26,227 nucleotides of DNA from a virus. Below are positions 18,909-25,184 of this stretch, piece after piece (the first letter of the stretch is position 1; the number at the start of each line of letters is the position of its first letter). Made by a program: the position numbers and the translations under genes. The stretch lies in UHGV virus genome UHGV-1489845. One strand, given 5' to 3'. The notes beneath the pieces were generated by a model that was given only the letters and a program-made list of their open reading frames with translations, did not search any database and had not been told where the DNA came from.

Positions 18909-22589
<3,681 letters not shown>

Positions 22590-22615
<26 letters not shown>

Positions 22616-23135
22616 TCAGCAACCCCGGTATCAGTTCATCCAGCGCGGCTGCTTTGTTCATGGCTTTGATGATATCCCGTTTCAGGAAATCAACATGTCG
22701 GTTTTCCAGTTCCGGAAAACGCCGCTGCACCGACAGGGGGAGCCCGTCGAGAATACTGGCAATTTCACCTGCGATCCGCGACAACACGAAAGTACAGAAT
22801 GCGGTTTCCACCACTTCAGCGGAGTCTCTGGCATTCTTCAGTTCCTGTGCGTCGGCCTGCGCACGCGTAAGTCGATGGCGTTCGTACTCAATAGTTCCTG
22901 GCTGGAGATCTGCCTCGCTGGCCTGCCGCAGTTCTTCAACCTCCCGGCGCAGCTTTTCGTTCTCAATTTCAGCATCCCTTTCGGCATACCATCTTATAAC
23001 GGCGGCAGAGTCATAAAGCACCTCATTACCCTTGCCACCGCCTCGCAGAACGGGCATTCCCTGTTCCTGCCAGTTCTGAATGGTACGGATACTCGCACCG
23101 AAAATGTCAGCCAGCTGCTTTTTGTTGACTTCCAT
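22590..23135 (-). CDS. Nu1: Terminase small subunit Nu1
   Basis: 181-aa ORF MEVNKKQLADIFGASIRTIQNWQEQGMPVLRGGGKGNEVLYDSAAVI...; lambda Nu1; 26-nt overlap with A. Confidence 0.9.
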
Positions 23136-23376
23136 TGTTCATTCCACGGCCAAAAACAGAGAAAGGAAACGACAGAGGCCCAAAAGCTCGTTTTCAGCAC
23201 CTGTCGTTTCCTTTCTTTTCAGGGGGTATTTTAAATAAAAACATTAAGTTACAACGAAGAAGAACGGAAACGCCTTAAACCGGAAAATTTTCATAAATAG
23301 CGAAAACCCGCGAGGTCGCCGCCCCGTAACCTGTCGGATCGCCGGAAAGGACCCGCAAAATGATAATGATTATCAT
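23136..23376. other. cos region: cosB-like segment (23136..23312), cosN (23313..23324) and cosQ-side sequence including a 15-bp palindrome (23361..23375)
   Basis: Plus strand reads ...cgaaaacccgcg AGGTCGCCGCCC cgtaacctgtcggatc...; its complement GGGCGGCGACCT is the lambda 12-nt cohesive end, flanked by sequence I recognise as lambda's left and right ends. TGATAAT-G-ATTATCA palindrome at 23361..23375. Confidence 0.8.
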
Positions 23377-23523
23377 CTACATGTCACAACGTGCATCTAC
23401 GCCATCAAACCACGTCAAATAATCAATTATGACGCAGGTATCGTATTAATTGATCTGCATCAACTTAACGTAAAAACAACTTCAGACAATACAAATCAGT
23501 GACACTGAATACAGGGCAACCTC

Positions 23524-23757
23524 ATGTCAACGAAGAACAGAACCCGCAGAACAACAACCCGCAACATCCGCTTTCCTAACCAAATGATTGAACAAATTAA
23601 CATCGCTCTTGATCAAAAAGGGTCCGGGAATTTCTCAGCCTGGGTCATTGAAGCCTGCCGCCGAAGACTGTGCTCAGAAAAAAGAGTTTCGCCTGAAGCA
23701 AACAAAGAAAAGAGTGACATTACTGAATTGCTCAGAAAGCAGGTCAGACCAGATTGA
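23524..23757 (+). CDS. Hypothetical small basic protein (77 aa), predicted ribbon-helix-helix-like DNA binder; possibly DUF3950 (YnfO/YlcI-like) - unverified
   Basis: ORF MSTKNRTRRTTTRNIRFPNQMIEQINIALDQKGSGNFSAWVIEACRRRL...; basic N-terminus, then a beta-strand/helix/loop/helix pattern typical of Arc/CopG-type folds. Opposite strand to all phage late genes. Family assignment is from memory of E. coli cryptic-prophage gene neighbourhoods. Confidence 0.6.
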   Translation: MSTKNRTRRTTTRNIRFPNQMIEQINIALDQKGSGNFSAWVIEACRRRLCSEKRVSPEANKEKSDITELLRKQVRPD

Positions 23758-23814
23758 AGCAATTTAGATAATCGTGCAGACTAGGTACCTTCATATCACA
23801 TGGAAGGTACTACA

Positions 23815-24225
23815 ATGGCTCAGGTTGCCATTTTTAAACAAATATTCGATAAAGTGCGAAATAATTTAAACTATCACTGGTTTTATTCTGAACTAAAACG
23901 TCACAATGTCTCACATTACATTTACTATTTAGCCACAGAGAATATTCATCTTGTTCTTGAAAACGATAATACGGTTTTAATAAAAGGACAGAGTAAGGTT
24001 GTAAATGTAAGATTTTCAAAAAATAAATGCCTTATAGAAGCCACCTTAAAAGGATTCAAATCAGGAGAGTTATCATTTTACGAATACAGGAAAAATCTTG
24101 CTACAGCAGGGGTTTTCAGATGGATTACAAATATCCACGAAAACAAAAGGTATTACTATACCTTTGATAATTCATTACTCTTTACTGAGAACATTCAGAA
24201 CACTACACAAATATTTCCGCACTAA
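23815..24225 (+). CDS. Hypothetical protein (136 aa from internal Met), possibly DUF1398 (YdfO/YbcV-like) - unverified
   Basis: ORF 23800..24225; GGAAGG sits 7 nt upstream of the ATG at 23815 ([31 protein letters not shown]...). Strongly AT-rich relative to the flanking phage genes, so a stop-free reading frame of this length is unlikely by chance. No recognisable catalytic motif. Confidence 0.65.
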
Positions 24226-24483
24226 ATCATAACGTCCGGTTTCTTCCGTGCCAGAACCGGACTCGCTGGCATGATGAAATATGTGTACCCGGTAACCCCG
24301 GTGTGCATCGTTATTGATTATTCCCGCACACTCGCGCAGAAGGAGTTCCCCGTCGGGCTACGGTCTCTGTTAATACGGGAATACGGCGACGATACAGCGC
24401 ATGATGTGTCAGGCTTGAATACCTTTATCCTTTAAAAGGGATATCAGTTAAGTTATCCCGTGTAGGGTATAAGCCATTATCAA

Positions 24484-24510
24484 AGCCACTCTGTAGGAAG
24501 TGGCTTTTGT
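24484..24510 (+). terminator. Plus-strand terminator-like hairpin downstream of the convergent cassette
   Basis: AGCCACU-CUGUAGGA-AGUGGCU followed by UUUUGU; part of a longer imperfect inverted repeat 24474..24515. Confidence 0.4.
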
Positions 24511-24513
24511 AAT

Positions 24514-24543
24514 GGCAATAAAAAGCCCCGCGAATGCGAGGCT
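24514..24543 (-). terminator. Minus-strand terminator-like hairpin downstream of Rz
   Basis: Minus-strand RNA GCCUCGC-AUUC-GCGGGGC (one G-U pair) followed by UUUUUAUUGCC. Confidence 0.4.
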
Positions 24544-24716
24544 AAATCCTGGTATTTGTAATGACTGGCTCTTATCTCAACGCAGCCCCTTACCGCGCGC
24601 AAAATGCTCAATATCAAGCATCAGCAATGAGATGTTTAATCTGGATTCACTCCAGAAGTGAGCACCACCCTGTCTACAGAGCCAGATGTGAAGGATGATG
24701 AGTAAAATTATCGCTA

Positions 24717-25184
24717 TCATCGAAGGCATTGCGTCCTGATGTATTCCTGAAGCGTTCTCAATGCTGTTTGGTCGCGGATAATTCCGTCCCGGATACCGAG
24801 AACGTTTCGTCCAGCAACTGGAGAGAGTTCGACGGTGGCATCATTGCCCATGCCGGAGGCGCTGGAGGTTTCGGCTGAGGATGGCACAGGGCATTTTCCT
24901 TTGACGAGCACCCGACCACCATTATCAAGCTTGCGCCGAAGAGCATCATTTTCAGCTTTCGCATCAGCTAACTCCTTTGTGTATTTATCATCGAGTGCAT
25001 CAGCATCACGCTGGCGCTGCTGCATGTCAGTAATGGTGGCGTTCGCCTTCTCCAGTTCACTGGCCTTGTTATCGCGCTGTTCTTTGTAGGCGATTGCATT
25101 ATCACGGTAATGATTAACAGCCCATGACAGGCAGACGATGATGCAGATAACCAGAGCGGAGATAATCGCGGTTACCCTGCTCAT
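24717..25184 (-). CDS. Rz: Spanin inner-membrane subunit Rz (i-spanin)
   Basis: ORF 24717..25196; from the ATG at 25184 ([31 protein letters not shown]...) the N-terminal half matches lambda Rz; start overlaps the R stop as ATGA. C-terminal half diverges from lambda. Confidence 0.8.
24758..24964 (-). CDS. Rz1: Spanin outer-membrane lipoprotein Rz1 (o-spanin), embedded in Rz in the +1 frame
   Basis: 68-aa [24 protein letters not shown]...PKPPAPPAW...; signal peptide with lipobox (VVGC) and a Pro-rich segment, as in lambda Rz1; lies wholly inside Rz. Confidence 0.75.

Follow-up and report, generated by a model that had tools for sequence, protein, structure and literature searches.

The moron concept reportedly goes back to Juhala and Hendrix. 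Morons are independently transcribed insertions that bring their own promoter and terminator, with bor and lom as examples (PMC4104026, PMC7067206). The closest described relative of the locus considered here lies next to one of them, namely the spacer between lambdap78 and bor in phage lambda (NC_001416, approximately 46,753-47,041). In the DLP12 prophage of K-12 the spacer between ybcV and borD is arranged as in lambda. A second point of comparison is provided by the prophage sRNAs of E. coli and Salmonella, including AgvB (RF02702), AsxR (RF02703), STnc100, Esr41, IsrK and others, which are non-coding and occupy conserved lambdoid positions beside moron sites. These sRNAs lie downstream of pR'/Q, and not between Rz and cos (PMC4104026; bioRxiv 10.64898/2026.05.13.724894).

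The window, that is, the whole 26,227-nt stretch of UHGV virus genome UHGV-1489845 that was analysed, corresponds to the right-hand end of a lambdoid prophage and is written in the direction opposite to its late operon. An initial annotation of this DNA had drawn attention to a 54-codon ORF behind a two-gene cassette, proposing it as a third cistron while allowing that it may be a chance ORF or a gene remnant. We conclude that the ORF is a chance reading frame over a non-coding spacer and not a conserved gene, with a probability of about 0.85. Judging by the pattern of substitutions, the conservation of the spacer is better explained by a hairpin than by a protein.

The spacer and its neighbours

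The features of the region are as follows.

20690-22615, minus strand: terminase large subunit
22590-23135, minus strand: Nu1-type small terminase subunit
near 23320: lambda-like cos sequence
23524-23757, plus strand: ynfO/ylcI-family gene (DUF3950), cassette gene 1
23800 or 23815 to 24225, plus strand: ydfO/ybcV-family gene (DUF1398), cassette gene 2
23524-24225, plus strand: the ynfO-ydfO cassette as a whole, with ydfO under purifying selection
24226-24716: stretch of 491 nt without accepted genes, which contains the ORF
24233-24401, no strand assigned: homologue of the ybcV(lambdap78)-bor spacer in lambda and DLP12, at about 82% identity
24234-24262, no strand assigned: left-boundary hairpin, GTCCGGTT-13 nt-AACCGGAC, from folds and compensatory variants
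24271-24435, plus strand: 54-codon ORF, a chance reading frame by shuffles, pN/pS, broken homologues and the lack of a family
24304-24396, minus strand (inferred from G·U asymmetry): multi-helix stem-loop of about 93 nt, from pair counts and compensatory changes
24434-24459, minus strand: terminator-like hairpin, GGGATA-10 nt-TATCCC followed by TTTT, read from the sequence and from folds and invariant across variants
24473-24516, no strand assigned: long inverted repeat, a bidirectional intrinsic terminator with its stem in folds and a TTTTG tail
24524-24543, minus strand: intrinsic terminator that follows Rz and the 50-aa ORF, from a terminator scan
right of the 491-nt stretch, minus strand: a 50-aa ORF, Rz, endolysin and holin, in that order

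Window positions 24226-24401 align with the lambda lambdap78-bor spacer at about 82% identity. In lambda and DLP12, as in the window, the spacer comes directly after a DUF1398 gene, and both the left hairpin and the stem-loop are present. The likeness ends at the position equivalent to 24401, where lambda and DLP12 continue into the bor moron whereas the window has a terminator module instead. The bor moron is absent from the window, and the homology stops before the AT-rich segment upstream of bor. A further difference is that the ORF does not exist in lambda or DLP12, in which its start is lost and its frame is interrupted by frameshifts and an in-frame TAG.

The spacer sits just upstream of bor in lambda, DLP12, phage 21 and 933W-type phages. 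In the window it is joined to the terminator module (24402-24520), part of which (24424-24513) occurs without the left part in HK97, HK620, Sf6 and other phages. In a lambda-type phage (L126:1640-1752, upstream of bor), the direct repeat TGTTTAGGGTTTGTTTA was found in the AT-rich segment specific to bor, which the shared block does not include; we take this repeat to resemble the PhoP box reported for borD. The possibility that the block is the bor promoter was considered and rejected, because the PhoP-box-like repeat and the AT-rich segment both lie in lambda's bor-specific part.

Of 5426 complete E. coli genomes, 2945 contain a match to part of the 24226-24716 stretch, as do hundreds of lambdoid phage records. 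In an alignment of 119 loci retrieved by a 22-nt exact pattern, the conserved block began abruptly on its left side, at the 24234-24262 hairpin, and was preceded by at least six unrelated left-hand sequences. This diversity of left neighbours implies that the block can occur independently of the ynfO-ydfO cassette. The boundary hairpin itself covaries, with GTCCGGCT/AGCCGGAC in Qin and GTCCTGT/ACAGGAC in mEp460-type phages. The locus is moron-like in the sense that its spacer is a junction at which different phages carry different morons, and also in that its ynfO-ydfO cassette runs against the late operon and stops at a terminator of its own.

A scan of genome contigs for divergent homologues returned, outside Escherichia, only lambda DNA contamination, and no diversity was gained. 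The lambda-type element was present in loci L136-L171, which are labelled Pseudomonas, Kitasatospora, Cohnella, Brevibacillus, Flavobacterium, Shewanella and others, on contigs of approximately 48.4 kb or 3.5 kb. These matches most likely represent contamination of public genomes with lambda DNA or a sequencing control strand.

On the plus strand, we infer that the ynfO-ydfO transcript extends through the region as its 3' UTR and ends at the 24473-24516 terminator. At the same place in other phages, the stem of this terminator is replaced by an alternative hairpin of the GCCCACC..GGTGGGC type, which constitutes a compensatory replacement. Reading along the late strand after Rz, three terminator-like hairpins follow one another (24543-24524, 24516-24473 and 24459-24434). 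The 50-aa ORF at 24577-24729 on the minus strand overlaps the Rz stop, corresponds to the PGAP protein WP_001139678.1 and has a full-length match to phrog_11822.

Base pairing in the spacer and its strand

The stem-loop at 24304-24396 comprises four helices.

24304-24310 with 24390-24396: helix 1, TGCATCG with CGATACA
24319-24328 with 24374-24383: helix 2, TATTCCCGCA with TACGGGAATA
24335-24339 with 24358-24362: apical helix, CGCAG with CTACG
24349-24351 with 24355-24357: small CCC/GGG hairpin

It occurs in lambda (approximately 46,868-46,962; L127:965-1068), phage 21, 933W-type Stx phages, mEp460, and the Salmonella phages ES18 and S135. We quantified pairing in an alignment of 47 distinct sequences (A2), using as controls the same helices with one partner slid by 1-3 columns and 500 shuffles. 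On the plus strand, 90.1% of the cells in helices 1 and 2 were paired, compared to 22-51% in the slid controls. Six pairs had changed on both sides, versus zero to two in the slid controls and a number that none of the 500 shuffles reached, although the aligned sequences are closely related and few independent events stand behind these pair counts. Of the 17 pairs that make up helices 1 and 2, at least nine are represented by more than one Watson-Crick type. Compensatory base-pair changes of the kind expected for a structured RNA element were thus found beyond the level of the controls.

Individual variants illustrate the pattern. Helix 2 of the lambda type reads CCCGGA...TCCGGG, a swap of C-G for G-C, and the Salmonella type (TATCATTGCA...TGCGATGATA) contains three double changes. 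A scan for helix-2 variants recovered TATTTCCGCA...TGCGGAAATA, which is again compensatory, while one demanding a non-C at the next helix-2 position returned no match. Across the variant scans, one pair was seen as C-G, U-A and A-U, and a single locus (L291) carries four compensatory pairs spread over both helices. From these substitutions, we take the stem-loop to be a real structure.

Folding programs were applied to single sequences and to alignments. The window's own element did not fold significantly better than its shuffles when taken singly (z = -1.45 on the minus strand and +0.28 on the plus strand); lambda's element folded better than shuffles on both strands (z = -3.2 minus, -4.3 plus). 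With default settings, RNAalifold recovered only part of helix 1 from the plus-strand alignment and did not recover helix 2. RIBOSUM-scored alifold recovered helices 1 and 2 on both strands.

Searches of Rfam gave no family for the element. At gathering thresholds, IS009 (RF02111) was the only model to pass in the whole window, and it did so at 1-121 on the minus strand, where the match is cut by the window edge (129.6 bits against a gathering score of 117). Under permissive conditions (E ≤ 1) across 23100-24800, the best matches were microRNA or STnc560 models at 18-25 bits, versus gathering scores of 50-98. The weak match to STnc560 (19.9 bits versus 55) was rejected.

A one-sided transition in a stem affects the two strands differently, giving a G·U pair in one of them and a C·A mismatch in its complement. 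In a first count, 97.4% of cells were paired on the minus strand versus 90.1% on the plus strand, a difference that is partly biased because many of the sequences had been fetched by a pattern inside helix 2. The count was therefore repeated on sequences from IMG/VR that had been retrieved with a pattern lying wholly between the two arms of helix 2, and thus outside helices 1 and 2; this yielded 47 haplotypes. In these, 677 cells of helices 1 and 2 were Watson-Crick pairs; a further 83 were G·U pairs possible on the minus strand alone, 15 paired on the plus strand alone and 24 on neither. All but one of the 15 plus-only cells fell at the terminal pair of helix 1. In total, 95.1% of cells in this outside-anchored sample were paired on the minus strand versus 86.6% on the plus strand.

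The four-helix model behaved similarly in a minus-strand alignment (A3), with 96.0% of cells paired compared to 34-65% when slid, and with U·G at nine pair positions. Polymorphism in unpaired columns showed no bias comparable to that of the stems, with 14 C/T versus 12 A/G. Transversions numbered 25 in unpaired and 10 in paired columns, as expected if pairing is selected. Wobble pairs were accordingly distributed in a strand-specific manner, with partial exceptions among the Salmonella variants, which carry one or two plus-only wobbles. The excess of minus-only G·U pairs suggests that the element is read as a late-strand RNA, antisense to the ORF, and that the late (minus) strand is more likely to be the functional strand of the stem-loop.

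Possible roles of the element

On the late strand, the element follows the lysis genes and whatever morons are present, and precedes cos or the packaging genes, in every phage in which its position was examined (lambda, 21, 933W-type, 1717-type, mEp460 and ES18). In lambda, the late strand is transcribed from pR' under Q antitermination. By this arrangement, the late strand would be the sole strand certain to be transcribed in all of the contexts examined. A promoter scan returned no sigma-70-like site for the ORF or for the element, and candidates picked out by eye were all poor. Lacking a promoter-like site, the element is presumably not an independent sRNA.

We propose that the compensatory pairs and the minus-strand G·U pairs would reflect a hairpin that acts as RNA inside the late transcript made under Q antitermination, on the strand opposite to the ORF. 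On the sequence comparisons presented here, we would give this proposal somewhat less than an even chance. Within such a transcript, the hairpin might contribute to processing or stability of the late mRNA at the junction of the lysis and packaging segments, although this narrower role, our best guess, is speculative and rather unlikely. Because the element is conserved, it could double as a crossover point for the exchange of neighbouring morons. The spacer itself is a mosaic, hairpin-rich, non-coding stretch, flanked by the ynfO-ydfO moron cassette on one side and by the Rz lysis gene on the other. Putting these parts together, the element may be an undescribed cis-acting RNA element of the lambdoid Q-dependent late transcript, perhaps with a processing or stability function, that also serves as a linker for moron exchange. 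We advance this composite more tentatively than the transcript role by itself.

Such an element would explain why a non-coding stretch is so strongly conserved, both in lambda and in roughly half of the complete E. coli genomes. If true, an RNA element at the lysis-packaging junction has been overlooked even in the best-studied phage, and the element marks the site at which virulence morons such as bor are exchanged. As a lead, the hairpin is modest but testable.

Among described RNAs, the element is most readily compared with the prophage sRNAs, with which it shares a non-coding nature and a conserved lambdoid position beside moron sites. It differs from those represented in Rfam in matching no model, in sitting between Rz and cos, and in having no evident promoter. 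Identification as an anti-sRNA of the AgvB/AsxR type or as a Pas sRNA was rejected on its position and on the missing Rfam match. The supplement of a Hfq-crosslinking dataset from strain Sakai listed no sRNA at ECs1217-1219, the site of the Sp5 copy.

The alternative that survives best places the function in DNA, either as a linker for homologous recombination between neighbouring morons or as a strand-specific hairpin in ssDNA, for example a signal for rolling-circle priming or assembly. The sharp boundaries of the block, its many different neighbours on both sides, and the phages with two direct copies around an insert of about 0.85 or 1.7 kb are all in keeping with such a role, and G·T pairs are tolerated in DNA hairpins too. 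However, a pure recombination linker predicts conservation of sequence and not compensatory change in stems, and we know of no protein or origin that acts at the element. Moreover, lambda grows with this region considered non-essential. We regard a DNA-level role as unlikely, if worth keeping in mind.

A role on the plus strand is less probable again. The hairpin would in that case stabilise the 3'-UTR of the ydfO/ybcV mRNA or act as an upstream element of bor, as might be supposed from its position directly after the DUF1398 gene in lambda, DLP12 and the window. The lambda version also folds well on this strand (z = -4.3), and the U·G wobbles of the Salmonella variants are valid on it. Yet on the plus strand the majority of sequences, the window's among them, show C·A mismatches where the minus strand has G·U, and phages of the mEp460, 1717, 933W and ES18 types have no plus-strand gene before the element. 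The location of the PhoP-box-like repeat in lambda's bor-specific segment further suggests that the control region of bor lies outside the block. Function in the late transcript is thus our preferred reading of the hairpin.

Two further observations were made on the element in other phages. In 933W-type phages (L134:1071-1274; Sakai ECs_1218), an annotated 67-aa late-strand ORF starts in the apical part of the hairpin. This ORF may be a doubtful call, given that the same frame stops after 17 codons in lambda. Five IMG/VR loci (L178, L198, L206, L222 and L226) have two direct copies of the element, approximately 950 or 1785 nt apart, between cos and Rz. The inserts flanked by these paired copies measure about 0.85 or 1.7 kb, which fits the footprint of moron exchange at the element.

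The 54-codon reading frame

The ORF was found exactly as first described, with an identical peptide. It starts at the ATG at 24271, which is followed immediately by a second ATG, and runs for 54 codons to the TAA at 24433-24435. Several properties given for it by the initial annotation were also borne out. Its GC content is higher than that of the cassette genes (0.49 versus 0.45 in ynfO and 0.315 in ydfO), and its stop lies close to the plus-strand terminator, 47 nt before the hairpin core AAAGCCACT...AGTGGCTTTTG at 24482-24509. The U-tract of the minus-strand hairpin at 24434-24459 overlaps the stop codon. The 15 nt before 24271 contain no Shine-Dalgarno-like run, the bases upstream of the ATG being ...CCGGACTCGCTGGC. 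Neither translational coupling nor a ribosome-binding site is apparent, as the ATG is 45 nt past the ydfO stop and the stable 8-bp hairpin at 24234-24262 intervenes, stopping 8 nt short of the ATG. The ORF is unlike the gene of a moron in having no promoter, ribosome-binding site, protein family or coding signature.

We asked how often an ORF of this length arises by chance in the 491-nt intergenic stretch (24226-24716). Closed ATG-initiated ORFs were counted in 5000 shuffles, and 1846 of these (37%) had one of at least 54 codons, with a median longest ORF of 47 codons. The length of the ORF is therefore no evidence for a gene. The opposite strand of this region has no ORF of 30 aa or more.

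Substitutions within the ORF showed no sign of coding. Using 29 alignable haplotypes and a 132-nt core of the ORF, the pooled pN/pS was 0.82 in frame, compared to 0.59 and 1.11 in the other two frames. This comparison of synonymous with nonsynonymous change, suggested at the outset as a check, hence came out against a gene. The minimum number of substitutions at codon positions 1, 2 and 3 was 19, 13 and 13, without an excess at the third position. As a control, the neighbouring ydfO gene compared among the window, lambda, DLP12 and Qin had a pN/pS of 0.13-0.42 and no indels, which indicates purifying selection. Nucleotide conservation continued unchanged beyond the ORF stop up to the terminator in the five phage types first aligned, with the next 50 nt invariant. 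The ORF also crosses at least three mosaic segments that assort independently among phages.

Conservation of the frame, the second check proposed, likewise failed outside close relatives. The frame is lost in lambda, DLP12, 933W-type and POCJ13-type phages, and Salmonella ES18 and S135. In lambda and DLP12, the first ATG is replaced by ATA (both ATGs in DLP12), single-base indels shift the frame, and an in-frame TAG stands where the window has CTG. POCJ13, Stx2_4151 and phiSTEC1589 share a 10-nt deletion within the ORF region, and ES18 and S135 have a +1 insertion with a TAA. Among 123 close relatives at more than 90% identity, the frame from a GTG at 24301 to the stop was open in every one. 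A 12-nt deletion among these relatives keeps the frame, one lineage has a 1-nt deletion, and the mEp460-type 5' variant retains an in-frame ATG. In 19 of the 123, however, an in-frame TAA or TAG upstream of the core leaves no ATG. At this level of identity, an open frame from the GTG is weak evidence for a gene, and it does not contradict what might be expected of a young, lineage-specific peptide.

Such a peptide is the stronger of the two alternatives to a chance frame. The ORF would then encode a real small protein of recent origin, translated as the third cistron of the ynfO-ydfO transcript or from its own start in mEp460-type phages. The ORF does lie on the strand of the cassette and ahead of its terminator, its frame is open from the GTG in all close relatives with an in-frame ATG kept in two 5' variants, and some automated pipelines call it. 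Against this stand the missing Shine-Dalgarno sequence and the hairpin ending 8 nt ahead of the ATG, the pN/pS of 0.82 without a codon-position signal, the in-frame stops before the core in 19 of 123 relatives, the destruction of the frame in lambda, DLP12, 933W-type, POCJ13-type and Salmonella homologues, the steady conservation past the stop, the mosaic segments crossed, and the want of any family or distant homologue. We consider a functional small protein very improbable. The proposed third cistron in particular does not hold up, there being no purifying selection, no ribosome-binding site and a broken frame in every more distant homologue examined; the spacer block is also found without the ynfO-ydfO cassette, in at least six different left-hand contexts. 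The alternative that the region is the decayed remnant of a longer ancestral gene, as the higher GC content and the conservation of the DNA in thousands of genomes might suggest, is scarcely credible, because no longer protein aligns in either protein library, the other strand has no ORF of 30 aa or more, and the compensatory substitutions fit base pairing rather than coding and are not expected of a decaying gene. A chance ORF, which the initial annotation had mentioned only as a hedge, is the reading supported by the shuffles, the pN/pS and the loss of the frame in distant homologues.

Protein searches agreed with this outcome. The ORF had no match in Pfam, PHROGs or NCBIfam. A word-indexed search of 5.8 billion protein clusters returned 56 clusters, all from Escherichia or Shigella, which were 42-79 aa long, at least 71% identical and variable in their N-termini. 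An exhaustive phmmer search of 1.84 billion representatives added more short ORFs from Escherichia and Shigella prophages and one long protein (P0057), and nothing else. P0057 was rejected as an unrelated repeat protein. The homologous matches are repeated calls on one stretch of DNA, without a protein family behind them.

Annotation of the ORF varies with its source. On DNA that is 100% identical, RefSeq/PGAP places no gene at 24271-24435 while annotating ynfO, the DUF1398 gene, the 50-aa minus-strand ORF and Rz. Nor is there a gene at its position in the curated records of K-12 MG1655 Qin and DLP12, lambda, phage 21 and ES18, although these list even very small proteins. In contrast to PGAP and the manually curated records, which omit the ORF on the same or homologous DNA, the automated records of phage Kati (CDS0057) and PhiR49_1 (XSB42958.1) call it from the second ATG as a 'hypothetical protein'; these short calls are the same ORF as the window's. 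As a gene call, the ORF should be dropped, and it is already spreading under that name in some automated phage and genome annotations. Three of its homologues in the protein libraries (P0033, P0034 and P0053) bear the UniRef/NCBI name 'Arginyl-tRNA synthetase', an evident annotation error on a non-gene.
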